Assembly (NCBI GenBank): GCA_965222075.1 | Contig: OZ244937.1 | Location: forward strand, 3,488,001 to 3,552,000 | DNA: 64,000 bases | Source of the DNA: Candidatus Latescibacterota bacterium | GTDB lineage: Bacteria > Latescibacterota > UBA2968 > GCA-2709665 | Direction: 5' to 3' | Shown: one piece after another, positions 6,220 through 48,616 of the stretch | Layout: each line of letters starts with the position of its first letter | Numbering within the stretch: the stretch's first letter is position 1 | Program-made: the position numbers and the translations under genes | Notes under the pieces: model-generated | Databases searched by the model: none | Seen by the model: only the letters and a program-made list of their open reading frames with translations | Told to the model about the DNA's origin: nothing

Positions 6220-6326
6220 GGTGAACATACCAGACAGGAGCGCTGCGTTGTACTGCTCTCACTTGATTTCCAGGTCCGGCCCGTTGAAGCAGAGGCCGTT
6301 GTTTTTCATGTTTGGCCCTGGATGGG

Positions 6327-24164: not shown

Positions 24165-25631
24165 ATGCTCTTCGACCGAATCAAATCCCTGTTCAAACAC
24201 ACCGCCATCTACGGCATCGGCGACCTGCTGGGGCGCGCCGTATCCGTCTTTCTGCTGCCCCTCTACGCCCGGATGCTCTCCACCGACGACAACGGCGTGA
24301 GGTCCCTCGCCTTCGTCTTTATCGGCTTCAGCACCATCTTCTACTCTCTGGGGCTGAACCAGGCTCTGGTTCGCTATCTCTCGGGAGAGGGCGACTCGGC
24401 GGTTCATCGCAACCGCTTCAGTTCCGCCTTCTGGACCCTCTTTGGCGTGGGCCTCACCTTCTCCGCCCTGCTCTGGGCAGGGGCAGTTCCGCTTGCGCAC
24501 TATTTCCTGGGAGTCGAGGCCTATGCCGACATCTTCCATCTGATGGCGGTGATTATCCTGCTGGATACCCTCAGCGAACCCCTCTTCACCGTCTGCCGGG
24601 CCCGGCAGCGCTCCGCCACCTACGCGGCGGTCAGACTCGTGCAGCACAGCCTGCAAATGGGCCTCACCGTCTACCTCATCGCCGGCCTTGGACAGGGTGT
24701 TCGAGCGATTTTCTGGAGCAACGTCGCCAGCTCGGCCTTCGCCTTTCTTGCGCTCTCTCCGGTCTGCTGGCAGAACCTCCGCCTGATCTATTCTCCCGCA
24801 GCCGTCCGAGAACTCCTTGCTTTTGGCATTCCCTTTGTTCCCTCCGCTCTGGCGCTTCTTGTCATCAACCTTTCCGACCGTTTCCTGATTAGAATTTTCC
24901 TCGGAATCGAAGAGGTGGGCATCTACGATATCGTCTACAAGTTCACCCTGCCCATGCTCATTGCGGTCCGTGTGCTCCGGGCCGCCTGGGCGCCGGCGAT
25001 CCTCTCAATTCCCGACCGGGAAGGTGCGCATGCCCTCTGTGCGCGGGTGACCACATACTTCAGCCTGACAGCGGTGTTTCTCTTCCTCTGCATCCTGAAC
25101 TTTTCCAGGGAACTGATCCTCCTGGTCGCCGGGTCCAACGCGCCTGTCTATCTCAAGGGTCAGGGTATTGTTGCCCCCATCCTGCTCGCGTTCCTCTTCT
25201 CCGGGATCTATGTTATCTTCACGGCCGGCGTCTATGCCGAGAGGCGCACCCGGGTGCTCCCGGCCATCGTCGGCGCAGGAGCGGTTGTAAATATCGGCAT
25301 CAACCTGCTTCTCATCCCCCGGATCGGATTTATCGCCGCAGCTTGGAGTACGCTGGCCGCCTACAGCCTTATGGTGCTGCTCCTCTACCTCCAAACACGC
25401 CGCTTCTACCCGGTGCCTTACGAATACCGGCGCCTCGCAAAGATCAGTGTGGCCGGAACAGTTGTCTTTCTCTTCACATCCGATTATATTCACCAGATCA
25501 CGCCCGGGGGCATCGCGCGGGGGATCTCCCTGCTGGCCTACCCCATCATCCTCTGGGGCTGGAACTTTTTCGACCCGCAGGAATGGCATAACCTCCGATC
25601 GATGGTCCGGTTCCCCTGGGTGCAAAGCTAA
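24165..25631 (+). CDS. Wzx-like oligosaccharide flippase (MOP superfamily)
   Basis: HTAIYGIGDLLGRAVSVFLLPLY, SDRFLI...EVGIY, about 12-14 TMs. Confidence 0.9.
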   Translation: MLFDRIKSLFKHTAIYGIGDLLGRAVSVFLLPLYARMLSTDDNGVRSLAFVFIGFSTIFYSLGLNQALVRYLSGEGDSAVHRNRFSSAFWTLFGVGLTFSALLWAGAVPLAHYFLGVEAYADIFHLMAVIILLDTLSEPLFTVCRARQRSATYAAVRLVQHSLQMGLTVYLIAGLGQGVRAIFWSNVASSAFAFLALSPVCWQNLRLIYSPAAVRELLAFGIPFVPSALALLVINLSDRFLIRIFLGIEEVGIYDIVYKFTLPMLIAVRVLRAAWAPAILSIPDREGAHALCARVTTYFSLTAVFLFLCILNFSRELILLVAGSNAPVYLKGQGIVAPILLAFLFSGIYVIFTAGVYAERRTRVLPAIVGAGAVVNIGINLLLIPRIGFIAAAWSTLAAYSLMVLLLYLQTRRFYPVPYEYRRLAKISVAGTVVFLFTSDYIHQITPGGIARGISLLAYPIILWGWNFFDPQEWHNLRSMVRFPWVQS

Positions 25632-37087: not shown

Positions 37088-37154
37088 CGACCTCCAGCCC
37101 TTTCCATTTCGGATTGTGTATTGCTTCTTTCTCTTTTTTGGCGCCCAACCGCAA

Positions 37155-37445
37155 TTAACTCACCGGCTGTCTCCCCTCAGGCCGTTCCAATTCAACCTTG
37201 AGATCAAGAGCGTGACACACCTTCAGGAAGGTCGTCAAATTACAATTGATCCCATTTTCCACTTTCGACAATTGCTGCTGGGTGATCTTTGCTCTCCTGG
37301 CAACCTCCTTTTGAGAAAGGCCTACCTGCTCTCGCATACGATAGATTTGCAGAGACAGCTCTGTGAGTTGCTTCTCTTCTTCGTAGAATCGCCTGAATCC
37401 TTCATCTTTCAGCTTCTCTTTCAGATGACTTCTAAAGCTCTTCAC
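37155..37445 (-). CDS. XRE-family HTH antitoxin (HigA-like)
   Basis: MREQVGLSQKEVARRAKITQQQLSKVENG; overlaps the toxin 3' end. Confidence 0.88.
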   Translation of the reverse strand: MKSFRSHLKEKLKDEGFRRFYEEEKQLTELSLQIYRMREQVGLSQKEVARRAKITQQQLSKVENGINCNLTTFLKVCHALDLKVELERPEGRQPVS

Positions 37446-37821
37446 CGAGTTCCTCCTCCAATCGCTGCTGATCATATCGAGACAAGAAATCAGATCGATA
37501 CCACCTGGCAAGGTCAATTTCAGATTGCGGCACACGCTGGGTACGTTTCACAAACCCATGGGTCAAGACGATGAAGCCCCTGAAGCGAAAAAAGTAGAGA
37601 ATGCGCACCTGATCACCGGAGAGCTTCAATCTCAGTTCATGGATACCATCTTCCAGAAGGTCCGCATAGGGTCTGGGTAGATTTGGACCTTGTGCTTCCA
37701 ATTGGGCAATCCAGCTGAGCGTTTTAGCCTGATCGCGATCTTTCCGTGCATCCATGAACTCTTGGACGGGACAATGGCCAGTTTCAGCTTCATAGTAGAT
37801 GATGTGCCATTTGCGATCCAT
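37432..37821 (-). CDS. RelE/HigB-superfamily toxin (Gp49-like)
   Basis: CPVQEFM, GPNLPRPY, GIHELR, RILYFF, LTHGFVKRTQRVP. Confidence 0.9.
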   Translation of the reverse strand: MDRKWHIIYYEAETGHCPVQEFMDARKDRDQAKTLSWIAQLEAQGPNLPRPYADLLEDGIHELRLKLSGDQVRILYFFRFRGFIVLTHGFVKRTQRVPQSEIDLARWYRSDFLSRYDQQRLEEELGEEL

Positions 37822-37825
37822 GTTA

Positions 37826-37854
37826 AATATACATCATAAATGATGTTTCTTCAA
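37826..37854 (-). promoter_or_regulatory. Toxin-antitoxin promoter with palindromic operator
   Basis: Minus strand TTGAAG-N17-TATATT; ACATCAT-AA-ATGATGT (37831-37846) fills the spacer. Confidence 0.7.
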
Positions 37855-37878
37855 GATAAAAATCAGTCAGAGCTTAGA

Positions 37879-38082
37879 CTAATTACGCATTTTCTTAATC
37901 TCGTTGAGGATCTCGTCTAATGTCATATCCTTGAAAATTTGCTCCCGCTCTTGGGTATAATTGCCGTAACCTGTCGTAAATTGATTGATGAAACGTATCG
38001 TATTCGCAATACCAATCTCTTTGGAAAGCACTTCAAGGGCCTCTTTGGTTATTTCACTCAAAGCTTTTTCCTGAACTGTCAT
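37879..38082 (-). CDS. Small PIN-associated protein (putative antitoxin)
   Basis: ALEVLSKEIGIANTIRFINQFTTGYGNYTQER; ATGA overlap with the upstream PIN remnant. Confidence 0.7.
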   Translation of the reverse strand: MTVQEKALSEITKEALEVLSKEIGIANTIRFINQFTTGYGNYTQEREQIFKDMTLDEILNEIKKMRN

Positions 38083-38210
38083 CTCTCAATCTCCGATATG
38101 AGTTCGGTGGGAGAAACTACCTGCACTCGAAGATTTTCTAATGCCTCCGCTCGCCTCAGAAATCTATCATCACAGGTACAGAAATAATCTGCTCCTGCTT
38201 CTTCTGCTGT
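38079..38210 (-). pseudogene. C-terminal remnant of a PIN-domain toxin
   Basis: AEEAGADYFCTCDDRFLRRAEALENLRVQVVSPTELISEIER*; the N-terminal part is absent. Confidence 0.7.
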
Positions 38211-38424
38211 GTCTTGCTGTCCAGGGGGCGCTACAAGCTACAATTATCAAGATATATTTTCATAGTTTACAATATCATAGATGTATCGGGGCTTCTCTCC
38301 TAAAAGATACTGCCATCAAGGCCAAGAATCAAGGTAAAACATTCAACAAAGCAGTTGTCATGCGCCCTACACGCCCGCTCACCCGTCTCGCCTCCCCCGC
38401 CTTCGGGGCGCCTGCGGGCTGGTG

Positions 38425-38491
38425 CCCCCCCACCGCATCAGCCGTCGCCTGTCGGCTCGGCTTCTGCGACTCCCCCTCAAGGGGGGAGTAA
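38425..38491. repeat. Small palindromic interspersed element
   Basis: CCCCCCCACCGCATCAGCC...GGCTTCTGCG followed by the ACTCCCCC-TCAA-GGGGGGAGT hairpin; supplies the stop codon of the adjacent gene. Confidence 0.6.
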
Positions 38492-39346
38492 TGAGGGGGG
38501 GCCGTGAATTTCCGCCAGGTATCGTGTGACGTTGTGCTCAAGGGGGTAGGAGTAACCCAGATGAGCCCCAACTTCGGACGCCAATCGCCCGAATATTTCG
38601 GCTGTCTTAAACATAGCCTTCCAGTTCTCTTCCCGGTCTGCTCCCGCGAAAGTCGCCTCGATCTCCGACCACAGGTGGGGTTCCAGTTGTTTCTTGAACC
38701 ATCTGCCATAGGCCCCAGGATTTGACTTCCAGCTATTCTTCATCCCGAGATACCAGGCGATCACAGTTTTCAGATAGTGATGATGAAGAGAGTTGTCATG
38801 CATATACTTTGCAAAGAACAACTCGTCCCGGGATAAATACTTCGCTACGTAGGTGATATTCCACCAGAAATGGTGAACAAGCTTCTCGTATTCGGATTCA
38901 GTTGGCTGTTTTGTCCAATACTGAGTGTACGTCGGCGGAACCGCTCCTTGGGTAAGACCATCCTTGTCGACCAGGACGGTATACCCCATGTCGTTTGTAT
39001 AGCCTCCATATGTACTGATATCCTTTTCTATGGCTTCTGGCAACATGATGTGGAAATCAACCCTTGGGGCGTCCTTGAATATCACAAGGCGCCAAACATC
39101 GTTCTCGTCCCCAATAACCGGTTTATACGGTTCGCGGACCAGGACTTCCCCGAATACCTCCAGCCACCCGTCTCCTGCCAGAAATGGCTGTAGATCTTCG
39201 ACATATAGTTCGATGTCATAGTCTGACAAGGCGTCAACTGGTGCATTCGGATTCGCACGAGTGCTGGTAAGGATTGCTACTCGGACGTTCTCGTTATCTT
39301 CTGCCCAGTCCGATACTTCTCTTGCCATGTTTCGTGCATTGTGCAT
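38477..39346 (-). CDS. Aminoglycoside 6-adenylyltransferase (ANT(6)/AadK family)
   Basis: VRVAILTSTRANPNAPVDALSDYDIELYV, VLVDKDG, FWWNITYVAKYLSRDELFFA, GRWFKKQL. Confidence 0.88.
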   Translation of the reverse strand: MHNARNMAREVSDWAEDNENVRVAILTSTRANPNAPVDALSDYDIELYVEDLQPFLAGDGWLEVFGEVLVREPYKPVIGDENDVWRLVIFKDAPRVDFHIMLPEAIEKDISTYGGYTNDMGYTVLVDKDGLTQGAVPPTYTQYWTKQPTESEYEKLVHHFWWNITYVAKYLSRDELFFAKYMHDNSLHHHYLKTVIAWYLGMKNSWKSNPGAYGRWFKKQLEPHLWSEIEATFAGADREENWKAMFKTAEIFGRLASEVGAHLGYSYPLEHNVTRYLAEIHGPPSLLPP

Positions 39347-39393
39347 CCAGCCCTCGGTATATTGGACATTGGTGGGGTGGTGTGTGCGATTTC

Positions 39394-39509
39394 CGCTAAC
39401 GTTTCACGGTTTGCGAACCCCGAGCTCGGCCGCTGAGCCTGTCGAAGCGTGTCGAGGGGTTGCCGAAGGCCAAGGAGCCTGGCGCCGCAGTGCAAATCCG
39501 CTGTTATGC
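39394..39509 (-). mobile_element. Integron attC site 1 (116 bp)
   Basis: Minus strand GCATAAC-AG-CGGATTTGC...GCAAACCG-TGAAAC-GTTAGCG; imperfect palindrome with one bulged base. Confidence 0.8.
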
Positions 39510-39641
39510 ATTGTGCCGCTTGCGATCAGTCAAACCCATCAAGGGGCAGTAATCAGCCATGCAGTTTCCGTTTTTCATGTTTTTCGTCTTTTGGGGGTAT
39601 GGGGACTTCACTTCAGATCCTTCGGCATCATTATTTTCTCG

Positions 39642-40568
39642 TTATCGACGGGCGTATTTCCTGACAAAGGGTTGGTTGACCGTTGTTGAAGTGAGGATAT
39701 GATACCTCGCGGGTTTTCTGAAGGCGTTCCCCCATGTTTCGAGCTTCCTGTACTCTCGCATGGCTTCCAAGTCAAAGTTAGCCAGGTACACACCTTCGTC
39801 TTCTCCTGAACGAACCACCAGATTATTCCTCAGATTCCCGTTTCTAAGATAAACCATCCCATCGAAAGCAACGGATTGCCCTGGCTTTCCTGGTTCCCCC
39901 ACATAATTAGCTAATGCTACTCCAACCATGTTCTCCATTGCCCTGGCCCGAATGATTCCGGTTCTGACTTCATTCATATCGCAAGAGGTCGGTACAATGA
40001 TTAACTCCGCGCCTTTTAGCATCAGGATTCGAGCACTTTCAGGGAATTCCATGTCGTAGCAGATCATAGCCCCGATCTCTACATCGCCTTGTCGCGTATC
40101 TAAGGTGGCAACATAGAAATCATCGCCTGGTGAGCAGGCAGCTTCCAGAGAGAAATCACAAGTATGCACTTTCGCGTACGTCATGACGCGATTTCCGTGG
40201 CGATCAAACAAGGTCGCGGAATTACGTGGTAAATCTGAAGTCGCCTCAAGATACGTTATGGCGATTGCCACTTCTAACTCCTTGGCCAGGTCAGCAAAGC
40301 GCATAACAAACTCACCGTCCGTTGGGATGGCACGGCGTTTCCACGCTTCACGCAGCTCAGGATATCGAGGATGGGATGGATCATAATTTTGATCCCAGAC
40401 TTCATCATGATAAGCCGTGTACCCGATATTCCACATCTCAGGAAACAGGACGAGATCGGCTCCCATAGAAGCCGCCTTCTTACAGAACTCAACTCCCTTG
40501 GCCAGGTTGGCGTGTTGGTCAAATCCGTGGGAGTTCATCTGAAGTAAAGCAACCGTAATCGTGGCCAT
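39642..40568 (-). CDS. Carbon-nitrogen hydrolase (nitrilase superfamily)
   Basis: Glu-Lys-Cys triad: FPEMW, YAKVH, ICYDMEFPE. Confidence 0.93.
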   Translation of the reverse strand: MATITVALLQMNSHGFDQHANLAKGVEFCKKAASMGADLVLFPEMWNIGYTAYHDEVWDQNYDPSHPRYPELREAWKRRAIPTDGEFVMRFADLAKELEVAIAITYLEATSDLPRNSATLFDRHGNRVMTYAKVHTCDFSLEAACSPGDDFYVATLDTRQGDVEIGAMICYDMEFPESARILMLKGAELIIVPTSCDMNEVRTGIIRARAMENMVGVALANYVGEPGKPGQSVAFDGMVYLRNGNLRNNLVVRSGEDEGVYLANFDLEAMREYRKLETWGNAFRKPARYHILTSTTVNQPFVRKYARR

Positions 40569-40582
40569 TTCGTTTTTTCTCT

Positions 40583-40639
40583 CTTTGATGATCCCGCTCA
40601 GGCGCGCTGTCAAACGTCGACTGGAACTCCTGGTTCAAC
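40583..40639 (-). mobile_element. Decayed short attC site (57 bp)
   Basis: Minus strand GTTGAAC-CAGGA-GTTCCAGT-CGAC...GCGCG-CCTGAGC-GGGATC-ATCAAAG; canonical 59-be geometry, but R' reads ATC instead of GTT. Confidence 0.5.
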
Positions 40640-41533
40640 ATCCTCTGCATCGTAACCCGGGTAAATGCTTTGTGCATCGGGTGGTAGCTTCCTGACATGC
40701 TTGAGGAAGGCGAACGCCCTTTCAGTGTCTTCTTCCGGAAATCGGTACCCGTAGTGGTTTCCAACGGACTGAGCGGTCCGAACGAACAATCTCTGGGTCG
40801 CCAGCAGCGACGCCCAGATATCGTCATAAGCGGAGCCGGCGTAGGTGCGCTCAAACTCCCGCCAGTCCTCCGGCTCAAGGTGCTGCTGCAGGTTCTTACC
40901 TTCGCTGCCCAACGATCTCTCGAATCCCTTCGTCACGCCGATGTACCAACCGAGCATCAGGACAAGATCCTCTCGCAGACGTTCTATGTGGCATTTCAGC
41001 AGCGGGAGCTTTCGTCGCCACAAGGTCTTCGGAATATGCGAGCCGAGGGTGAAGCAGAATGTGTTGCAGCAGTCATCATACCACTGCTGCGTGGGCTCTG
41101 TGATGAAGTAGCTTCGTTCGCTCGGATTTGGGAGGTCGGGCAGGAGGCCATCCTTGTCCAGCAGAACCCGGGTCAGGCTATCTGATGGGCGACTCTCCAG
41201 CATTTCGATAGGCAAGAACCCGATATCGATGCGATTGCCGTCCGTGAACTGAACGTTGTAGGTGTAGCGGCCGTCCCCGCAGCCGGGTCGGTAGATCTGA
41301 TCCTCGACCTTTTGAACGAACATAGGAACTCCAAAATAGGGAACAACGCCACTTTCTTCTCTGAATGGTTGGACGTTCGTGACAAAGTAGACAATATCGT
41401 AGTCCCGAAATATGTCCTTCTCCGCGTTCGGGTTGGCCCGAGACCCGTTCATCACGACCACCCGGATGTGTTCATCGGCCTGGGCAAAATCGAGGACTAA
41501 TGCAAGCATTTCTTCTTCGGTACGTGTCTTCAC
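40610..41533 (-). CDS. Second aminoglycoside 6-adenylyltransferase (ANT(6)/AadK family)
   Basis: RTEEEML..VLDFA, IRVVVMNGSRANPN..KDIFRDYDIVYFV, FTDGNRID, VLLDKDG. Confidence 0.9.
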   Translation of the reverse strand: MKTRTEEEMLALVLDFAQADEHIRVVVMNGSRANPNAEKDIFRDYDIVYFVTNVQPFREESGVVPYFGVPMFVQKVEDQIYRPGCGDGRYTYNVQFTDGNRIDIGFLPIEMLESRPSDSLTRVLLDKDGLLPDLPNPSERSYFITEPTQQWYDDCCNTFCFTLGSHIPKTLWRRKLPLLKCHIERLREDLVLMLGWYIGVTKGFERSLGSEGKNLQQHLEPEDWREFERTYAGSAYDDIWASLLATQRLFVRTAQSVGNHYGYRFPEEDTERAFAFLKHVRKLPPDAQSIYPGYDAEDVEPGVPVDV

Positions 41534-41571
41534 CTGATCCTCTCTGCCAACCGGACATAATTGGAAGACAT

Positions 41572-41820
41572 TCACGCTTCGACGGCGTCGGCTATGAACT
41601 TGCGAAATGAGTCGCGGTAATGGGGTTGCGAATCCGCCAGGTCAGGTCGCCACTGACGGGCGGCCATCCAACCCAGAGCAATTTTCGTTGCAGTAACCAG
41701 GTCGGAACCCTCAAGGCGTCTCGGGCCCAGTTCCCGAACTTCTCGTTTATCCTCATCCCATTGTACTTTAACAGGGCCTTCAGTTTCTGTGGGAACCACA
41801 TACGGAGACCCAGACCGCAA
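41572..41820 (-). pseudogene. Short ORF, probably the C-terminal remnant of a truncated gene
   Basis: 82-aa ORF without a clear RBS, ending just upstream of the ANT(6) gene; no recognisable motif. Confidence 0.3.
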
Positions 41821-41923
41821 ACGATCTCATCAGAGTCCCCCTGTAGTGCGCCAGGCGTGCGACCCGGGTGTCTGCTTCATACCTGTATGACCGAGTCACT
41901 TGTACTCAAGAGGTAATCGCAGA

Positions 41924-42826
41924 TCACGCCAGATGCTCCGTCCGCAGTTGCCGCGACCAGTCAAAGTACTCGTCCAGCCCCACCAACTCGAATTCATCGA
42001 CAATATCGGCTGCGGTGCGCTCCACAGTCTCGCTATAGATCACCGAAGTGCCCACCTCCCCGGTCGTGACAATGCGCACGGCCTCGCCGTATTGCCGATG
42101 TATATCGTCGAACCTGGCCCGATTCTTGTCGAGATGCACCACTTCATAGTCCAGATTGATGCGCGCTGTGGCCCAACTCTGATAGTTATTGCTCTGAGCC
42201 AGGGTGGTCCCCTGCGGATCAATAATCGTGCAGGGCGTCCCCCTGTACACCGAGCCGACGAAAAAGGCCTGCACATCCAAAGCCCAGAAGTTCTGCACCA
42301 GCCCGCCGTGGTACATGGAACTGAAGAGCAGCAATTTCGGCTTGAGCTTCTTGTACTGGGCCCGCAATTCCCCAAAGTTCAGATCGAAACAGATCACCCC
42401 ACCCACCGACCCGAATTCGGTCCGGATCAGGGACGCGCCTGGACCTGGACGGGTGCCGTGGTCAAACTCCGGGTAGACTGGAATGTACTTGCGGTAGATA
42501 CCGGCTAATTCCCCCTGCCGATCGAGCAGCCCGAGGACATTGAAGACCGCCCCGCTCTTGCACTCCTTCTGATGCACCGGCACGGTGATATAGCAGCTAT
42601 ACGTCCGGGCTAAGCCAGCCAGTAGCTGAGTAGTCGGCCCCTCTGGCACTTCCTCGTCGCAGGTTCGGCAGATGGTCTCGGGCAGGACGATCAGATCGGG
42701 CCTGGTAGCTCGGGCGACCTGCCCCACCAGGTCCTCCAGGTCCTTGTGGGTTTGCTTCATCACCTCCTGGTCCGCTCCGCTGATCGGGGCGTAGGAAATG
42801 CTCGATACGACGATGTGATTGCTCAT
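41924..42826 (-). CDS. Carbon-nitrogen hydrolase (nitrilase superfamily)
   Basis: VLPET, YRKYIP, ICFDLNF triad; AAGGA RBS. Confidence 0.9.
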   Translation of the reverse strand: MSNHIVVSSISYAPISGADQEVMKQTHKDLEDLVGQVARATRPDLIVLPETICRTCDEEVPEGPTTQLLAGLARTYSCYITVPVHQKECKSGAVFNVLGLLDRQGELAGIYRKYIPVYPEFDHGTRPGPGASLIRTEFGSVGGVICFDLNFGELRAQYKKLKPKLLLFSSMYHGGLVQNFWALDVQAFFVGSVYRGTPCTIIDPQGTTLAQSNNYQSWATARINLDYEVVHLDKNRARFDDIHRQYGEAVRIVTTGEVGTSVIYSETVERTAADIVDEFELVGLDEYFDWSRQLRTEHLA

Positions 42827-42920
42827 GGGATTTTTCCTTTCGAAAGTCGATCCAGGTTACCTGAATGCCGTGCTCCGCCCTGGCGGGACATTCTGGATTT
42901 GCGCATTTTGAAACAGACCA

Positions 42921-43241
42921 GACCTACCCCCTATCCCCCTTCCTGAGAGGAAGGGGGAACCCGGATCGGTTGATGAGCGGCTGGATTGGCTGAAGTCATT
43001 TCGATTGATGAAAAAATCCAGACGAAATATCGTGATTGGTCAGCATGTTGTGCTTGAGAAAGTAACGAGAAAGCATCCTGCAAGCACGAGGATTGCAAGT
43101 TTTACGTATTTCGAATGTTGAAATTTGCACGAATTTGGATGGCACTCTCCAATCAGTCAGAGCTTATATAAAACAGTGTCGACGCAACGCTTGGTTCAAT
43201 TCCCCCTCTCCTCGCAGGAGAGGGGGCCGGGGGGAGAGGTC
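42921..43241 (+). mobile_element. Internally deleted DUF559 (Vsr-like endonuclease) gene flanked by C/G hairpin repeats
   Basis: Flanks CCCCCTTCC-TGAGA-GGAAGGGGG and CCCCCTCTCC-TCGCA-GGAGAGGGGG. MKKSRRNIVIGQHVVLEKVTR (from 43008) is joined out of frame to LQARGLQVLRISNVEICTNLDGTLQSV. Confidence 0.65.
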
Positions 43242-43408
43242 CTGCTATAGGTTCGACTCTCTTATTGATACGATCGAGCGCGACCAGGAGGCATGCCATC
43301 GAAAATCCACGAAACCCGCCTTAATAAAAAAAGAAGGGTGAAAATACAGCGCGATCATTTGATTTGCCCTAAGTGCCAATATAGAATGGGACAACTCACC
43401 CTCCGAGT

Positions 43409-43897
43409 TTAATGTCGTATTTTGGGCGGATTGGGAATGTCATCCATCAACTCCATGCGGATGAACTCGAACTCACCTCCGTTCGTCCGATTCATATAGT
43501 GTTCGACTACCCTGAAACCAACGCGTTTGTATACCTTGGCCCGCTTGTTGAAAGCCGCAACGCGAAGCTGGATGGTTTTCGGCGAGAATCGAGATTGCGC
43601 GAAATCCAAACCTGCACATACAAATTTCTCCCCCAATCCTTTCCCCGTCAGATCCGGACGAAGCCCTAAACCAAAATCCACGACGCCGTCTGTGTTCTGG
43701 AACGCAAAGAACCCCACCAATTCTCCTGTGCTATCTCGAACGGCGAACATAGATTCACCCCGAAGCTCGGGATCAAGAAGCTCCGCCAGATCTTCGGGAT
43801 CCGCTTCATAGTCGTAAAAGGCGTATTCACCCTCGTAATGCCAGGAAGCGATCTTTTCAGCATCTGATTGAGTCAGAGGTTCGATATCGAATCGCAT
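43409..43897 (-). CDS. GNAT N-acetyltransferase (RimJ/RimL-like)
   Basis: IASWHYEGEYAFYD, GLGLRPDLTGKGLG, LRVAAFNKRA..YKRVGF. Confidence 0.9.
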   Translation of the reverse strand: MRFDIEPLTQSDAEKIASWHYEGEYAFYDYEADPEDLAELLDPELRGESMFAVRDSTGELVGFFAFQNTDGVVDFGLGLRPDLTGKGLGEKFVCAGLDFAQSRFSPKTIQLRVAAFNKRAKVYKRVGFRVVEHYMNRTNGGEFEFIRMELMDDIPNPPKIRH

Positions 43898-44009
43898 TAA
43901 GACAACCCTATAGATTTCCTGCTGGCGTATGACGTCCCGGTCACCCGCGATGACCGCGCCCGAATCGCTGGCGATCAGCTTCGGCCGGGTCGGGATTCGA
44001 GGACCGATG

Positions 44010-45431
44010 TCAGTTTTGAGGATCGGGATGGATGTCGGAGGCCAACTCGCGCAGCACCTCGACCGCCAGGAGCACGTCCTCTCTTCGACAGTCGAATTGC
44101 CCGACCTGGAAGCGGATGACGAACTGCCCCTCGTGAATTGTATGCGTCAGGTAGATCCGGCCGTCGTCGTTGACCGCGCGAAGTAGTCGTTCGGTGGCGT
44201 TGCTGGGATTCTCGCCCTCGGGCGCGTACTGGAATGTGAAGAGCGAAAGGCGGCAGTCCGTCGTCACGCGAAAGCCGTCCAGCGATGCAATCGCGGCGGC
44301 GGCCTCCTCGGCCCACGCAATATGGTTCCGGATGCGCTGGCGGAGGTCTTCGAGACCGTGGGCGCGGAGCAGGAACCAGAGCTTGAGGGCCCGGAACCTG
44401 CGCCCCAGGGGGATCGTCCATTCGCTGTAATTGGTAATTTCGGACTGGCCGAGGGTCTGTAGGTAATCCGGATGGATGCCCAGGGTGCGGACCTGCGGTT
44501 CCGGATCCGCGAGAAACTGGATCGAGCAGTCGAACTGCGCGCCGAGCCACTTGTGGGGATTGAAGACGATGCTGTCCGCTTTCTCGACCCCCGACCACAA
44601 CCCCCGTAGCTCGGGGCAGATCATCGCGGAACCGGCCCACGCGGCGTCGACGTGGACGTAGAGATCATACGCTCGCGCCACTTCGATGGCCTGGTCCACC
44701 CTGTCGGACGCGCCGATCGACGTGCCCCCAACGCACAGCACGACGCCGGCCGGAAGGAATCCCGCTGCGCGATCAGCGTCGATCGCCGCGCGGAGCGCCT
44801 CCGGGTCGAGCGCCCAGGAACCATCGGTCGGGACCTTGACGAGATTCCGCTGGCCGATCCCGGCGATTCGTACCGCCTTGTCGATGGACGAGTGGGTCTC
44901 CGGCGAGGCATAGACCCTGAGCTGTTTCTCCCCGGCCATTCCGGAATCGATCCCTCGCCAGCCGAGCGTGCGCTCGCGCATCGTCAGTACAGCGCAGACA
45001 TTGGCCGACGTGGCCGACTCCTGGATAACCCCCTGGAACCCTTCGGGCAGACCGAGCGCCTGGCGCATCCAGTCGACCATCCGTGTCTCAATCTCCGTAG
45101 CCGCGGGCGAGGTCTGCCAGAGCATGCACTGGGCCGCCATCACCGCCGTCAAGTTCTCGGCGATCATCGAAACCGGCGCGGCGTTGGCGCTGAAGTAGGC
45201 GAAAAAGCGCCGGTGTTGCCAGTGCGTCATACCGTCCGGCACAATGCGCTCGAAGTCGGCGAAGATCGTCTCCATGTCTTCCGGCTCTTCCGGCGCCGCC
45301 GCGGGCAGCATCGCGGCGATCTCACCCGGCGCGGTCTGCGCCCGGACGGGCCGCTCCTCCAGCGTGGCCAGGTACTCCGCGCCCCACTGTGCAGCGCGTT
45401 CAGCCCACTGATAGTAGTCTTCTCTTTTCAT
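44010..45431 (-). CDS. Aromatic-L-amino-acid (group II PLP) decarboxylase
   Basis: GMTHWQH..FFAYF, SPAATEIE, HVDAAWAG, NPHKW (PLP lysine), LGRRFRALKLW; GGAGGT RBS directly after the attC R' site. Confidence 0.95.
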   Translation of the reverse strand: MKREDYYQWAERAAQWGAEYLATLEERPVRAQTAPGEIAAMLPAAAPEEPEDMETIFADFERIVPDGMTHWQHRRFFAYFSANAAPVSMIAENLTAVMAAQCMLWQTSPAATEIETRMVDWMRQALGLPEGFQGVIQESATSANVCAVLTMRERTLGWRGIDSGMAGEKQLRVYASPETHSSIDKAVRIAGIGQRNLVKVPTDGSWALDPEALRAAIDADRAAGFLPAGVVLCVGGTSIGASDRVDQAIEVARAYDLYVHVDAAWAGSAMICPELRGLWSGVEKADSIVFNPHKWLGAQFDCSIQFLADPEPQVRTLGIHPDYLQTLGQSEITNYSEWTIPLGRRFRALKLWFLLRAHGLEDLRQRIRNHIAWAEEAAAAIASLDGFRVTTDCRLSLFTFQYAPEGENPSNATERLLRAVNDDGRIYLTHTIHEGQFVIRFQVGQFDCRREDVLLAVEVLRELASDIHPDPQN

Positions 45432-45452
45432 GGGACGGTATGTACACCTCCG

Positions 45453-45554
45453 CTGCAACGTTTTGCCAGTTTGTGACGGCGGCGGAGCGAAGCGGAGCCG
45501 CTGTGCCGAAGGCCGAAGGAGCGAAGCGACTGAAGCAAAAACTGGCTGTTACAC
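45453..45554 (-). mobile_element. Integron attC site 2 (102 bp)
   Basis: Minus strand GTGTAAC-A-GCCAGTTTTTG...CAAACTGGC-AAAAC-GTTGCAG. Confidence 0.85.
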
Positions 45555-45613
45555 GATGGCGCAGGCCCGGGGTAGTTGGGTGGCCTGCCAGGGATGGCAG
45601 GGGGTTGGTTTTT

Positions 45614-45643
45614 TGTAAGAAATCAACCGAAGGAAGCGTCTAA
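45614..45643 (+). promoter_or_regulatory. ECF-type promoter TGTAAG-N17-CGTCTAA
   Basis: Resembles ECF AAC/CGT promoters; lies directly upstream of the sigma ATG at 45648. Confidence 0.55.
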
Positions 45644-45647
45644 TAGG

Positions 45648-46214
45648 ATGAACAACGACCCGAGAAACCCCAGAGATCGTTTAAGAATAATGATCGGATC
45701 AGTTATGGCAGATACCAGAGATGAAGCTCTGTTCAAAGATTTGCTGGCTAATCATACAGGTACCATTCTTAAAGTAGCCCGATCCTTTACCTCAACTCAG
45801 GAAGATATGAACGATCTCTCCCAAGAGATTCTCATTCAGCTTTGGCTGGCCATCCCTTCCTACCAGGAACGGTCAAAACCCTCGACGTGGATATACAGAG
45901 TCGCCTTGAACAAGGCATTGACTTGGCAACGTTCCGAAAAGAAACGTTGGGCACGGTATTCTCCATTATCCGAAATCGTGGATGCCAGGATTTCTGAATC
46001 CAATGAAAAACATGAAATTCTTGGTCAACTTTACAGAGAAATCCGTAAACTCAATAAAATCAATCGATCCCTTATACTGTTGTACCTCGATGGGTTCAGT
46101 TACTCAGAGATGGCCGAAACCCTTGGCATGTCCCAGAACAGCGTCGGAGTTCGACTCAACCGCATCAGAAAACAGCTTTCCGAAAATATGAAAGGAGGCT
46201 CCCATGAACTTTGA
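45648..46214 (+). CDS. ECF RNA polymerase sigma factor
   Basis: DLSQEILIQLW, STWIYRVALN (region 2); LYLDGFSYSEMAETLGMSQNSVGVRLNRIRKQL (region 4); alternative start at 45705. Confidence 0.93.
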   Translation: MNNDPRNPRDRLRIMIGSVMADTRDEALFKDLLANHTGTILKVARSFTSTQEDMNDLSQEILIQLWLAIPSYQERSKPSTWIYRVALNKALTWQRSEKKRWARYSPLSEIVDARISESNEKHEILGQLYREIRKLNKINRSLILLYLDGFSYSEMAETLGMSQNSVGVRLNRIRKQLSENMKGGSHEL

Positions 46215-46821
46215 GGATATCACTAAGATCTGGCAGTATCAGACGAATGAGGCGATTCTAATCAGAAATGAAGCAAGTCTTTTAGATGAAGTACGCAAAC
46301 AATATCGTAGGGGTAAACACTGGCTGATCGGGTTGAACCTATATGTACTGATTGTAGGTGTACCTGGCCTCTGTTTTCTCGGCTGGCTGGGGCTGAAAAC
46401 ATGGCCAAACTTCAAAGCCGTATTTCCAGTTGCATTCGGACTTCTTTTCACAACAGTCATACTTACCCTTTTTGTTTCAACCCGACGACAAAGAGTTCGC
46501 GAGCAGAGCTTTGGGAGTTCAGTAAAGGCCAGGATTGAATGTTTACTCTCCCAAGCTAATCACTGGGTCTGGTTACTTCAAGCTTACCTCAGGTGGATCT
46601 TTCCTGCTGGAATCACCGTATGGATCTTGGGCGTGACATGGTGGGGATTAGTCAAAGGACTCCCACTTTGGGGTACTGCTTATATTCTTTTCTGTTCACT
46701 TGGATTCTGTGCGATATACTGGTCTTTTCAACGGATTTACCAAAAGAAATTCCTTCCTCGCAAGCGAGTGCTCGAAGACCTGCTTCGCAGCATCGAAAGC
46801 ACTGGCGAGCACGATGCATAA
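46204..46821 (+). CDS. Four-TM putative anti-sigma factor
   Basis: MNFEDITKIWQ N-terminus, four hydrophobic segments, overlaps the sigma stop, AAGGAGG RBS. Confidence 0.75.
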   Translation: MNFEDITKIWQYQTNEAILIRNEASLLDEVRKQYRRGKHWLIGLNLYVLIVGVPGLCFLGWLGLKTWPNFKAVFPVAFGLLFTTVILTLFVSTRRQRVREQSFGSSVKARIECLLSQANHWVWLLQAYLRWIFPAGITVWILGVTWWGLVKGLPLWGTAYILFCSLGFCAIYWSFQRIYQKKFLPRKRVLEDLLRSIESTGEHDA

Positions 46822-46895
46822 ACAGACTCCTATGACATTTACTTTCTGTTTTTAGGCGGGCCAGGACGGCCGCCTTTGTTTTGGCCTGCGCTTTC

Positions 46896-46984
46896 GTGTA
46901 ACGTTCCCGCAATTCACGAAGCTGCGTAGCAGCTTTGTGGCGTAGGGCGCGAAGCGACCGGAGCCCGTGAATCGCGTGTTAAGC
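46896..46984 (-). mobile_element. Integron attC site 3 (89 bp)
   Basis: Minus strand GCTTAAC-A-CGCGATTCACG...CGTGAATTGCG-GGAAC-GTTACAC. Confidence 0.85.
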
Positions 46985-47036
46985 GCTGGTACGGCGCGGG
47001 GTGGTTATGGTCTTCCTCGCCCGGCCGAGAGCGCGC

Positions 47037-47420
47037 TCAGATATCTATCCGGTAGTCCAACGTGGCTTCGTCCCCTGTCATGCCGCGGAAACCCCAATTA
47101 CCGGCCGGAGTCTCGAAGAGCGTGATCTCTAGATCAATCGGTGCAATCCCCAAATTCTCCCCTATGCGCTTGAACAAAAGGTGGATCAGTTTCTTCCTGA
47201 CTTCTGCTGACCGTCCCTCCATTAGAGAGATCTCAATCACCGTGTACGCATCCGTACGTCCCTCCGGATAGTAGAAGTCTTCAGCATCCATTGGGATGAA
47301 GCGATGTGCTCGTTTATCGGTCGGAAATGAGAGGGCGTCAACCATACATCCGTTGATCACATCGGATAGCTTCGCCTTTATCGGATCCAGATTTTGCCTC
47401 AGACCGTAGACTCGAATCAT
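47037..47420 (-). CDS. Tautomerase-family protein (Tautomerase_2-like)
   Basis: LSDVINGCMVDALSFPTDKRAHRF, IEISLMEGRS.E.RKKL, ETPAGNWGFRG. Confidence 0.85.
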   Translation of the reverse strand: MIRVYGLRQNLDPIKAKLSDVINGCMVDALSFPTDKRAHRFIPMDAEDFYYPEGRTDAYTVIEISLMEGRSAEVRKKLIHLLFKRIGENLGIAPIDLEITLFETPAGNWGFRGMTGDEATLDYRIDI

Positions 47421-47830
47421 GCGGGTTCTCCGTTCTGGCGAATGTGACGGCCTAGCACGCGACGCCTGCGTGTTTGGTATATCGATGCCGCACTTGCATT
47501 TAACTACGGCATTAGCGAACAGATGCAGTGATACAGTCCAGACCTGGATATTGCCGAACGTTCGGGAACATTTCGCTTTGGAAGTGTTTAGCCCGAACAT
47601 GTTCAGAGATGCTTCCTATGGTGGCATCGTCATCATCCATAACCTGCCTCTTTTTTGGCAATTATTGCATCCAACGGCCTTCGTACTTATGCGAAATCCC
47701 GATTCGTAACCCATGTATAGATCTGTGCTGATATGCAAAAAAATGATCCGGAGACACAACGCGCATCTTCGGACACGTCAAACAGCCTGCCCAACTTTTT
47801 CTGCTGATTTCTATGTCGCTCTTAATACCT

Positions 47831-48616
47831 CTAAAGCTTGCCCTCCACAAAATCCAGGAACATCGGATTCCCCACCGTCACCCCCCCGTCCGCCACAATC
47901 GTCGCTCCGGTCACAAACGACGCCTCGTCCGACGCCAGGAAAAGCGCCACATTGGCAATCTCCTCCGGCTGTCCCACCCGCTGTAGAGGATACACCGTTG
48001 CCAACCGATCTAAAAGCTCCGGGTCCTTTTCCAGCGCCGGCTGCCAGGTATCGGTCGCAATCGTCCCCGGGCAGATCGCATTCACCCGAATGCCGTCCGG
48101 CCCGTAGTCCACCGCCATCGTCCGCGTCAGGGCGATCACCCCCGCCTTCGCTGCGCTGTACGCGCTCTCTCCAAACGACATCAGCGCATTCACAGAAGAA
48201 ATATTCACAATCGATCCGCCCTTCCGCTGAAACATCTGCGGAAGCGCCGCCCGGCTGCACAGGTAGGTGCTCTTGAGCACCCCTTCGATATTCCGGTCCC
48301 ACAACGCCGGCTCGACCTCCAGCACGTGGGTGCCCTTGCAAAAGTAGGCGTTGTTCACCAGAACGTCCAGCCCCCCAAATTGCTCCACCGCCGCATCCAC
48401 CGCCCGCGTTACATCCTCCTCAGCTGTCGCGTCGCCCACCACCAGCGCAGCCTCGCCCCCCGCCTCCCGGATCTGTGCCACAGCCGACGCCCCTCGCTCC
48501 TCGTTCAGCTCTAAGATCACCACCCGGGCGCCCTCCTGCGCAAACCGCACCGCCGTGGCCCGCCCGATGCCCGCGCCCCCCCCGGTAATCCAGGCAGTTT
48601 TATCTTTCAGCCTCAT
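47831..48616 (-). CDS. Short-chain dehydrogenase/reductase
   Basis: TGGGAGIG, VNNA, YSAAK, RVNAICPG, ADGG. Confidence 0.95.
   Translation of the reverse strand: MRLKDKTAWITGGGAGIGRATAVRFAQEGARVVILELNEERGASAVAQIREAGGEAALVVGDATAEEDVTRAVDAAVEQFGGLDVLVNNAYFCKGTHVLEVEPALWDRNIEGVLKSTYLCSRAALPQMFQRKGGSIVNISSVNALMSFGESAYSAAKAGVIALTRTMAVDYGPDGIRVNAICPGTIATDTWQPALEKDPELLDRLATVYPLQRVGQPEEIANVALFLASDEASFVTGATIVADGGVTVGNPMFLDFVEGKL

Follow-up and report, generated by a model that had tools for sequence, protein, structure and literature searches.

Positions 37105 to 47827 of the window, the 64,000-nucleotide stretch of a Candidatus Latescibacterota genome analysed here, probably hold an atypical kind of chromosomal integron that has decayed. 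On the minus strand, the order of its elements would be a recombinase gene, of which the last 32 codons are left, an attI site ending in GTT and an array with three attC sites. Comparative evidence points to the adjacent XerA-like recombinase as the presumed builder of the array, and, judging by the loci of relatives, a recombinase without the domain held to define integron integrases may be able to run arrays of this kind. The enzyme would join folded attC bottom strands to the double-stranded attI that follows its own gene; the bottom-strand signature of the attC sites would be 5'-TAAC-G-TYYn, stem, ... stem, 1–3 nt, GTTA-3'.

Genome comparison shows the region to be an insertion that differs between relatives. 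In the same-family genome G004, the two flanks, which match the window as far as 37104 and again from 47828 on, lie approximately 955 bp apart and the whole 10.7 kb are absent, whereas the same-genus genome G001 lacks window positions 37172 to 41910 at the same place. The variable array of mixed composition that had been proposed from the window alone is supported.

All three palindromes described in the original prediction are present, and the minus strand is the top (cassette) strand as claimed. The shared motifs were also recovered (GCCGAAGGCC in sites 1 and 2, GCGAAGCGAC in sites 2 and 3). The sites were scored with a home-built covariance model (R1), which was built on 28 sites of the same genome, all of them outside the window:

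46896 to 46984, minus strand (the plus strand is the bottom strand): attC site 3, which ends cassette 1; R1 55.6 bits, E 2e-14
45453 to 45554, minus strand: attC site 2, with GGAGG and the ATG at 45431 coming next on the minus strand; R1 29.4 bits, E 2.6e-6
39394 to 39509, minus strand: attC site 1; R1 36.1 bits, E 2.2e-8

R1 matched exactly these three places in the window (the next best of the eight matches at E ≤ 10 had an E of 0.2), and each of them aligned across the full model (positions 1–87). One terminator-like stem adjoins site 3. In single-sequence folding, site 3 alone surpassed its shuffled versions (z −2.9 and −2.2); the energies of sites 1 and 2 were no better than those of shuffles (z between −0.2 and +0.7). 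Loose palindrome scans gave equally many matches in reversed-sequence controls. Taken together with the weak folding of single sites, this indicates that the signal lies in the family-specific architecture and not in palindromy as such.

The family comprises about 57 copies in about 10 clusters of the genome (R1, E ≤ 0.01), with a median spacing of 991 bp between sites. Genome-wide, 42 of the 46 intervals have their longest ORF on the strand predicted to be the top one. Within the window, the pattern of a single co-oriented ORF plus site is limited to cassettes 1 and 2, and a block of 5.9 kb does not fit it. TAAC and GTT are invariant in the 28 aligned sites, as is the G after AAC (28/28). Paired cells amount to 88.0% in this alignment, compared to 70.2% after shuffling (reached in 0 of 500 shuffles) and 29.5% to 43.5% when the partners are slid; the covariation score is 0.457 versus 0.179 for shuffles (0/500) and 0.056 to 0.090 for slid partners. 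In the inner helix, both sides have changed in 10 of 10 pairs. The central spacer is strongly one-sided (5 nt on the R' side, 1–3 nt on the R'' side), which is unusual, and one base of the 3' arm is left unpaired in part of the sites only. According to passages of Bouvier 2009 (PMC2727003), attC bottom strands have a G following AAC in the R' box, a central spacer that stays unpaired and one or more extrahelical bases in the R''–L'' arm; the G matches this description in all 28 sites, the unpaired base of the 3' arm only in part of them.

Based on the independently built model, the covariation and the cassette arrays, the palindromes are genuine integron attC sites and not REPs. It is very improbable that they are REP/BIME-like or terminator-like repeats with no connection to site-specific recombination. 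The sites are indeed GC-rich intergenic hairpins, one of them next to a terminator-like stem, and two fold no better than shuffles. However, REP or BIME elements would be dispersed, in both orientations and without cassette structure, whereas these sites are clustered, with 53 of 57 on one strand, and have invariant AAC and GTT ends and covarying stems. Such repeats would also leave the cassette-precise junctions between genomes and the linkage to a recombinase across phyla unaccounted for.

Upstream of the first cassette, two further elements were identified:

47636 to 47731, minus strand: remnant of a short XerA-like/IntI-like tyrosine recombinase gene (last ~32 codons, residues 315–346, with an internal stop)
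47501 to 47635, minus strand: attI-like module downstream of the recombinase stop, with the presumed crossover GTT at 47504–47502

The preceding ~315 codons of the recombinase are deleted. The remnant is 50% identical over 32 amino acids to the recombinase of the related genome G018 (tblastn, E 0.001), with a degenerate catalytic-tyrosine motif (IYTWV) still discernible, and the DNA from 47501 to 47727 is 76% identical to the gene end and attI of G018 (E 2e-40). The module is kept in the intact loci of G002 and G018 and at position 5300922–5301003 of the window's own genome. Its conservation runs to ...CCGTAG/TTA (the slash marks the presumed crossover), beyond which all sequences diverge; among the matches listed to the G018 module in relatives, 51 of 81 end at this position. 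The original prediction of an array with no integrase in the window needs amending in view of the remnant and the attI-like site. Its classification as CALIN-like holds insofar as attC2 and attC3 lie 1.35 kb apart with no IntI match, and the window would be called a CALIN under IntegronFinder criteria. It differs from a pure CALIN in its recombinase remnant and attI, which make it a beheaded integron; in addition, attC1 is 5.9 kb away from attC2, beyond the default clustering distance of 4 kb (Cury 2016).

The cargo of the inserted region, read from the attI-like module onward, is as follows:

47037 to 47420, minus strand: tautomerase-family ORF of cassette 1, 127 amino acids from the ATG at 47420; Pfam PF14552, 79.9 bits
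45648 to 46821, plus strand: cargo of cassette 2 in inverse orientation, consisting of the next two genes
45648 to 46214, plus strand: ECF sigma factor; Pfam Sigma70_r2 and r4_2, TIGR02937 90.6 bits, over the cut-off
46204 to 46821, plus strand: 205-amino-acid protein, no family match
39642 to 45431, minus strand: six-gene block between attC2 and attC1 (Pfam and NCBIfam), listed below
44010 to 45431, minus strand: PLP-dependent decarboxylase
43409 to 43897, minus strand: GNAT acetyltransferase
42888 to 43243: multi-copy repeat within the block
41924 to 42826, minus strand: first CN-hydrolase
41572 to 41820, minus strand: 82-amino-acid ORF
40610 to 41575, minus strand: ANT(6)-like nucleotidyltransferase
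39642 to 40613, minus strand: second CN-hydrolase
38477 to 39346, minus strand: AadS-like ANT(6)-family nucleotidyltransferase, the last cassette-like gene, with no attC after it; PF04439, 239 bits
37879 to 38082, minus strand: 67-amino-acid ORF upstream of the toxin gene, no family match
37432 to 37821, minus strand: Gp49/HigB-like toxin gene at the distal end of the inserted region; PF05973, 76.9 bits

The tautomerase cassette (46963–47504) is 95.6% identical to positions 5729–6270 of locus L147 in G002, a genome of another genus, whereas core flanks are 72–74% identical. In the window it stands behind attI; in G002 it adjoins an attC site (L147 6264–6348). Alignment of the two loci shows that, from one genus to the other, the first cassette has switched between an attI and an attC context, the break falling exactly at G/TT. 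For the first cassette of G018, eight matches in other genomes begin at the crossover position, and one of them adjoins an attC. Sites 1 and 2 are separated by 5.9 kb, which proved to be the six-gene block and not a string of single-gene cassettes. Its order is kept in genomes of genus g2 (e.g., G002 L148 6337–16208, where R1 found no attC in 18 kb). The decay assumed originally is evident from the truncated recombinase, the low-scoring attC sites, the block and the terminal gene without attC, and the last three of these indicate that cassette boundaries are eroding. The genome contains five recombinase remnants and no intact copy, so the array would now be frozen.

The IntI supposed to be encoded elsewhere was not found: the genome contains no canonical IntI, as none of its nine TIGR02249 matches exceeded the cut-off in the HMM check. 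The intact gene of relatives encodes a XerA-like protein without the IntI-specific I2 domain, approximately 42 residues shorter than VchIntIA (PDB 2a3v), in which the chain segment 171–239 corresponds to 27 residues. Among solved structures, 2a3v is nonetheless the best match (152.6 bits versus 123.7 for XerA and 88.9 for XerD). The short recombinases share the aligned motifs LRHSFATHLL, LLGH and IYT.V with IntI, and their genes adjoin attI and attC arrays. They differ from IntI by the absence of the ~42 residues around patch III (I2 region), and their TIGR02249 scores (205–214 bits) stay below the cut-off of 265. XerA is a chromosome-dimer resolvase acting at dif. The recombinase matches the 263-position XerA profile (NF040815; PDB 5hxy, 4a8e) end to end; the proteins of G018 (218.6 bits) and G002 (210.6 bits) fall just under its curated cut-off of 220 bits, and six of seven array-linked proteins from other phyla exceed it (222.6–244.1 bits). 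Unlike XerA, the short recombinases stand at the head of cassette arrays; a genome carries several copies of them, and they have paralogues linked to IS91. These close paralogues (43–48% identity) belong to IS91-type units, and the recombinase family is therefore not dedicated to integrons.

Among relatives, 8 of the 12 non-IS91 loci have co-oriented downstream arrays and 3 have no array; G003 carries three downstream attC sites in opposite polarity. In other phyla, 80 loci of the short recombinase were searched, 33 of which have at least 2 kb of downstream sequence. Fourteen loci, from Archaea, Bacillota, Spirochaetota and other phyla, contained R1 matches, and all 37 matches were located downstream and on the opposite strand. 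Upstream of the distant recombinase genes, none was found in 531 kb, compared to 297 kb searched downstream. In 26 of 29 intervals, the longest ORF had the same orientation as the integrase. A clade of 23 rows, mostly Bacteroidota, gave no R1 match.

This linkage bears on an ordinary CALIN as explanation, in which the arrays come from a canonical IntI located elsewhere, lost or borne on a mobile element, with the XerA-like gene and its downstream module as bystanders or a secondary insertion site. Canonical IntI is known from G004 (same family, 464.5 bits), G036 (same order) and the distant array-bearing G042, and could therefore act in trans; IntI can also place cassettes at secondary GTT sites (Cury 2016). 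Furthermore, passages of Escudero 2020 (PMC7790495) describe cassette capture as requiring the I2 domain, and Cury 2016 states that I2-less recombinases near attC "are not IntI"; both count against a XerA-like builder. We nevertheless consider an ordinary CALIN unlikely. In genus g2, none of the 15 genomes searched has a TIGR02249 match over the cut-off, yet 14 of them contain R1 attC sites, with cassettes found alternately behind attI and attC. Four of the five distant array genomes (the exception is G042) lack canonical IntI, and all 37 distant R1 matches share one polarity and position with respect to the short recombinase. In G004, the arrays headed by the canonical IntI have attC sites of another type, with symmetric spacers; the R1-type sites there are located downstream of short recombinases.

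Alternatively, the recombinase and the ~135-nt module, part of a conserved stretch of ~190 nt, could be the end of a mobile element, for example an IS91-related or other tyrosine-recombinase element, that inserts at attC-like GTT sequences; the junction would then be a terminus and not attI. Paralogues in multi-copy units of int and an IS91-like transposase, which in G007 occupy the heads of arrays and in G004 directly follow the canonical intI, agree with such an element, as do the many homologues at contig ends, which is repeat-like, and the five copies in the window's genome. Still, we regard this explanation as rather improbable, less likely than an ordinary CALIN: genes of the G018 type have no transposase following them and the window's genome has no IS91-like match. 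Beyond the junction lies a cassette that starts at the same base behind attC elsewhere, as an exchange between attI and attC gives, and arrays are one-sided in 10 of 13 array-bearing loci (L161, L168, L169 and L170 also have a few upstream sites).

For the preferred reading of a decayed integron, the closest known systems are the reverse-orientation sedentary chromosomal integrons, for example of Treponema and of archaea, in which transcription of intI runs towards attI. As far as described in passages of Wu 2013 (PMC3607928) and the Ghaly 2022 preprint, they resemble the arrays studied here in an integrase co-oriented with the cassettes, attI just downstream, homogeneous attC arrays, cassettes of ~1 kb, toxin–antitoxin genes and inverted cassettes. 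The integrases there are defined by the IntI-specific additional domain, which the recombinase described here does not have, and the attC central spacer is strongly asymmetric here. Integron integrases are defined, and detected by software, via the additional domain I2, which is held to be the innovation enabling recombination of folded single-stranded attC (Cury 2016; passages of the Ghaly 2022 preprint and of Escudero 2020, PMC7790495).

Judged from the comparison of genomes, a broader proposal is tentative and falls slightly short of an even chance: a widespread XerA-like clade, sister to canonical IntI, which never had I2 or lost it, may assemble TAAC-GTYYn arrays and form a second integron class. 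Its range would include Bacillota, Spirochaetota, Nitrospirota, Gemmatimonadota, Thermodesulfobacteriota, the lineage of the window and at least one archaeon. CALINs are at least as numerous as complete integrons, and for 95% of them no intI pseudogene can be recognised in the vicinity (Cury 2016); an I2-less sister clade that builds arrays would explain part of this puzzle, since current tools would file its arrays as CALINs. The known host range of integrons, which according to the literature are nearly absent from Firmicutes, would widen. Escudero 2020 (PMC7790495) notes, in the passages concerned, a "lack of intermediates" in integron origin. The clade would be a living intermediate or proof that I2 is dispensable, and integron origin would become testable with natural proteins. 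The window's genome itself would retain about 57 fossil cassette sites, with no enzyme left for moving them. Among the cargo are genes of the ANT(6) family, which score well under resistance-gene cut-offs; the AadS-like gene reached 254.7 bits against NF033387, under its cut-off of 450.

The three imperfect palindromes that the original prediction took for attC sites are present in the window, together with the inner motifs that they share. The window corresponds to C1:3488001–3552000 of G000, a genome of 5.36 Mb in one contig. A scan of this genome anchored on AACGTT and the stem following it showed that the architecture of the palindromes also recurs outside the window, in tight plus-strand clusters. 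A covariance model (R1) was prepared from 28 sites of this family, none of which stemmed from the window. When RNAalifold was applied to the alignment, all 8 of 8 pairs of the main stem showed compensatory changes. In the tested structure of 17 pairs (R box, 2-bp extension, and 8-bp stem), 88.0% of the cells were paired compared to 70.2% in shuffles (88.0% reached in 0 of 500), and this fraction dropped to 29.5%–43.5% when the partners were slid; its inner helix had changes on both sides in 10 of 10 pairs. R1 was run on the whole window with filters off and gave eight matches at E ≤ 10. The best three were exactly the proposed sites, while the fourth had an E value of 0.2.

attC sites in the window
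46896–46984, minus strand, attC3, R1 score 55.6 bits
39394–39509, minus strand, attC1, R1 score 36.1 bits
45453–45554, minus strand, attC2, R1 score 29.4 bits

The matches at all three sites and the covariation bear out their assignment to an attC family that is conserved in structure. Folding of single sequences was better than in shuffles for attC3 only and uninformative for the other two sites. A MAFFT alignment of the three window sites alone misaligned the site ends. Loose, unanchored scans for AAC...GTT palindromes were dropped because reversed or complemented controls gave equal numbers of matches.

Run on the whole genome, R1 scored 150 of 3483 candidates and yielded at least 59 matches at E ≤ 1. 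An nhmmer profile from the same alignment found 68 matches at E ≤ 10; 57 of them had an E value ≤0.01 (53 on the plus and four on the minus strand).

Clusters of attC matches in the G000 genome (genome positions, nhmmer matches at E ≤ 10)
0.42 Mb, one to three sites
0.65 Mb, one or two sites
0.972–0.982 Mb, eight sites
1.747–1.750 Mb, two sites
2.49 Mb, one partial site
3.41 Mb, two weak partial matches
3.447–3.472 Mb, 22 sites
window, three sites
3.779 Mb, one site
4.159–4.175 Mb, 13 sites
5.294–5.300 Mb, eight sites

The clusters are organized as cassettes. In the 46 intervals of 150–4000 bp between neighboring sites on the same strand, the longest open reading frame (ORF) was encoded on the strand complementary to that of the model in 42 cases, and the median site-to-site spacing was 991 bp. 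In several sites printed with their flanks, TAAC on the plus strand was preceded within a few bases by CAT, which corresponds to ATG on the opposite strand. The 22-site array also contains duplicated cassettes (genome 3457606–3459196 and 3468497–3470103, two 1513-bp intervals with a 482-aa ORF), and the cores of its attC sites at 3459118–3459196 and 3465936–3466014 are identical over the 71-bp site.

On the plus strand, TAAC is followed by G in all 28 sites, and the 3′ arm of many sites contains a single unpaired base. Bouvier (2009, PMC2727003) describes three bottom-strand features, among them that the position following AAC is "a G in most attC sites" and that the extrahelical bases lie on the R''-L'' arm. 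Both features therefore identify the plus strand as the bottom strand and the minus strand as the cassette (top) strand, in agreement with the predicted orientation. Unlike textbook attC sites, the G000 family has a one-sided central spacer with 5 nt (GTYYn) on the R' side and 1–3 nt on the R'' side. The canonical-looking sites beside the canonical IntI of G004, a genome of the same family, have about 5 nt on each side (few sites, judged by eye).

A canonical integrase was not detected in G000: none of nine matches to the IntI profile TIGR02249 exceeded the cut-off of 265 bits. A canonical IntI used as tblastn query gave a weak match in the window (E 0.068). The remnant became clear through a short recombinase as query, that is, a XerA-like/IntI-like tyrosine recombinase without the IntI-specific I2 domain, and through DNA comparison. 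The intact enzyme of the related genome G018 detected five truncated copies in G000.

Truncated recombinase copies in G000 (genome positions unless stated otherwise)
697214–697616, minus strand, residues 197–333, 83%–94% identity, two frames
5300971–5301396, minus strand, residues 145–281
416072–416347, plus strand, residues 251–345
3408628–3408889, plus strand, residues 215–307
window 47636–47731, minus strand, remnant, residues 315–346, 50% identity, E 0.001

With window 47400–47850 as query, 47494–47573 showed 80% identity to genome 5300924–5301003, which is located between the last attC of the 5.29–5.30 Mb array and its recombinase fragment, and 47589–47727 showed 77% identity to the end of a second fragment at 0.416 Mb. 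In the genome comparison, an 18-base motif was confined to the two attI-like places in the window and at 5.30 Mb. The regions following the recombinase stop codon in G018, in G002 (a related genome of another genus), in the window, and at the 5.30-Mb locus share about 190 nt, comprising the gene end and the attI-like module. This stretch ends at CCGTAG, immediately before TTA, and all four sequences differ beyond this point. The attI GTT of the window is located at 47504–47502 on the minus strand. The window is a beheaded integron rather than a bare CALIN. Of the original prediction, the attC sites and the decaying array stand; the statement that the window holds no integrase does not, given the remnant and its attI-like module, and the prediction was incomplete as to the kind of integrase. 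A promoter scan around attI gave nothing above shuffles.

Intact short recombinase genes are located beside arrays in the relatives G018 (346-aa frame), G002, G003, and G004 (three genes). The proteins can be aligned with the canonical IntI of G004 except around patch III, where about 35 residues are missing. TIGR02249 matched them in two stretches (about 11–174 and 235–315; 205–214 bits in total, cut-off 265), and the XerA-type profile NF040815 gave 210–219 bits (cut-off 220). The best match among solved structures was VchIntIA (2a3v) with 152.6 bits, compared to 123.7 and 121.5 bits for XerA and 88.9 bits for XerD; in the 2a3v alignment, chain residues 171–239 are replaced by 27 residues. 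The I2 domain is absent from these enzymes. Among the 41 genomes searched, only two, G004 and G036, carried canonical IntI above the cut-off; R1-type attC sites occurred in 30 of the 41, including 19 of the 21 same-family and 10 of the 19 sister-family genomes.

The 314-aa recombinases of G004 (three copies) and G007 (six copies) were rejected as integron integrases. Each is followed after 15–43 nt by a 394-aa ORF with IS91-like motifs, which we take, from these motifs, to be an IS91-like transposase, so that these recombinases are assigned to insertion sequences; their loci were left out of the linkage count. Among the 12 remaining loci of relatives, eight, three of which are orthologous, were followed downstream by R1 sites whose bottom strand lay opposite the gene; G003 had three sites of the other polarity, and three loci had no sites. 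The 314-aa recombinase units themselves (G007 loci L158–L163; G004 L029 1301–3454, L156, and L157) had R1 sites downstream in fixed polarity for five of the six G007 copies, and the G004 L029 unit directly follows the canonical intI. Such units may target attI or attC sites. In G004 (L029–L030, G004:C1:2493501–2533500), the canonical IntI (464.5 bits) is accompanied by attC-like sites with symmetric spacers and is faced, within about 26 kb, by a short recombinase (2519127–2519930, minus strand) with R1-type sites; each of the two attC types appears to be tied to its own enzyme in this genome.

A homologue search with the short-recombinase alignment recovered 80 loci from many phyla (42%–58% identity), 11 of which had an IS91-like match. 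R1, which contains G000 sites only, gave 37 matches at E ≤ 1 (23 at E < 0.01) over these loci. All 37, distributed over 14 loci, were located downstream of the recombinase gene on the opposite strand. The 80 loci comprise 531,124 bases upstream and 296,526 bases downstream of the gene, and 33 of them include at least 2 kb of downstream sequence. Array linkage to the short recombinase and its polarity extend beyond the relatives of G000.

Distant loci with R1 matches
Methanoperedenaceae archaeon, 54.1 bits
Desulfitobacterium, nine sites
Gemmatimonadaceae, seven sites
Spirochaetota, six loci
Thermodesulfobacterium, Saccharibacillus, Nitrospiraceae, Oscillospiraceae, and another Bacillota

Apart from a few variant ends, the bottom strands of the 23 best matches read nnnTAAC-GTYYn, stem, ..., stem, 1–3 nt, GTTAnnn, and the longest ORF was co-oriented with the recombinase in 26 of 29 intervals from six distant loci. 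Scanning the 80 loci for anchored palindromes of a generic kind produced too much background in AT-rich genomes (136 matches in 891 kb) and served solely to spot the Desulfitobacterium array. Seven array-linked distant proteins (L059 was left out owing to an internal stop) matched NF040815 end to end with 199–244 bits, six of them over the cut-off, and TIGR02249 with 176–214 bits, all below it; the TIGR02249 stretches shown end near profile position 180 or begin near 231. Four of the five array-holding distant genomes had no canonical IntI over the TIGR02249 cut-off; the fifth, G042, had one such match 1.3 Mb away. In a quick FastTree phylogeny (93 rows, rooted on two G000 Xer proteins), nine canonical IntI grouped together with a support of 100, and the 82 short proteins all fell into the sister group of this clade (support 81), with the IS91-linked proteins mostly in one subclade. 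This sister-group placement, drawn from the protein sequences, is tentative because the canonical sample is narrow (nine closely related proteins, about 63%–89% identity to the query).

Cassettes have moved between attI and attC with precise junctions. A 441-nt query from G018, running from the gene end through the module into the first cassette, was searched in 41 genomes; among the 81 matches listed, 51 end at query position 360–375 and eight begin at 358. One first-cassette match (G015:C26:25485–25568) overlaps an attC match (25410–25491) by 7 bases; hence, the same cassette is found behind attI in G018 and behind attC elsewhere. Window 46963–47504 (a tautomerase gene and part of attC3) shows 95.6% identity to G002 (L147 5729–6270), and the identity stops at the attI GTT. 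The end of the cassette in G002 overlaps an attC (L147 6264–6348, 33.6 bits). Core flanks between the two genera are only 72%–74% identical.

An integrase transcribed toward attI is known from Treponema (PMC3607928), and archaeal integrons are reported to have attI directly downstream of intI (Ghaly, 2022, preprint). The enzyme differs here, as the recombinase lacks the additional domain by which IntI is defined; according to PMC7790495, the capture of cassettes requires this domain, which is "not found in any other protein." The four "intermediate" recombinases near attC in Cury (2016) may already include members of the short clade. A literature search covering full texts and few subscription journals yielded no description of recombinases without I2 heading attC arrays. 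By analogy with IntI, the short recombinase would bind double-stranded attI downstream of its own gene, pair it with the folded attC bottom strand, and exchange one strand between G and TT; the one-sided spacer may stand in for I2 and the extrahelical bases of canonical systems. In G000, loss of the enzyme would have left the cassettes fixed, and deletions and repeats would now be blurring them. Taken alone, the window is a fossil of modest interest; the integron class to which it points would matter if confirmed.

The flanks that match the window as far as 37104 and again from 47828 are separated by about 955 bp in G004, which identifies the 10.7 kb between them in the window as an insertion. 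In G001 (same genus), the left flank is kept, window 37172–41910 is absent, and the match to the right flank begins on a new contig, from window 47910. The GC content across 37–48 kb is 0.47–0.58 compared to about 0.6 outside, with a single 1-kb value of 0.65 at 44–45 kb. The 5.9 kb between attC2 and attC1 encode a PLP decarboxylase, a GNAT protein, a CN-hydrolase, an 82-aa ORF, an ANT(6)-like protein, and a second CN-hydrolase. This block was rejected as a string of cassettes, as window 40622–45450 keeps its order in genomes of g2, the genus of G002; R1 gave no match on the 18-kb G002 locus with these genes. No attC was found after the distal ANT(6)-like gene (38477–39346). This terminal gene and the R1 scores of the window sites (29–56 bits vs. 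a maximum of 84.2 bits at the other genomic sites) fit erosion. The ANT(6)-like proteins, with scores of 254.7 and 223.5 bits, fell short of the respective NCBIfam cut-offs (450 and 420) and are called family members, not resistance genes.

The PLP decarboxylase gene (44006–45450) shows 84%–89% DNA identity within the same and the sister family (core neighbors 72%–76%), an excess which suggests recent transfer or unusual constraint. An intergenic gap of the six-gene block holds a repeat (42888–43243) with about 81% identical copies at genome 247013–247194 and 3046173–3046354 and several copies in G002 and G003; this repeat is possibly a MITE or the remnant of an IS. Directly 3′ of the last ANT(6)-like gene lies a repeat of about 95 nt (38406–38500). 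It shares 93% identity with genome 654638–654728, near two attC at 0.651 Mb, and 97%–100% with segments of four G001 contigs; one of these segments lies within about 20 bp of a locus edge that is a contig end. A terminator-like hairpin (46856–46889) closes an inverted sigma/membrane-protein pair and abuts attC3. The GC skew flips from plus to minus at window position ~13000 (genome ~3.501 Mb), while the genes remain on the plus strand. The cumulative skew of the genome peaks at 1.376 Mb and has its minimum at 4.223 Mb, and locally inverted segments at 3.1–3.3, 3.4–3.5, and 4.7 Mb suggest rearrangements.
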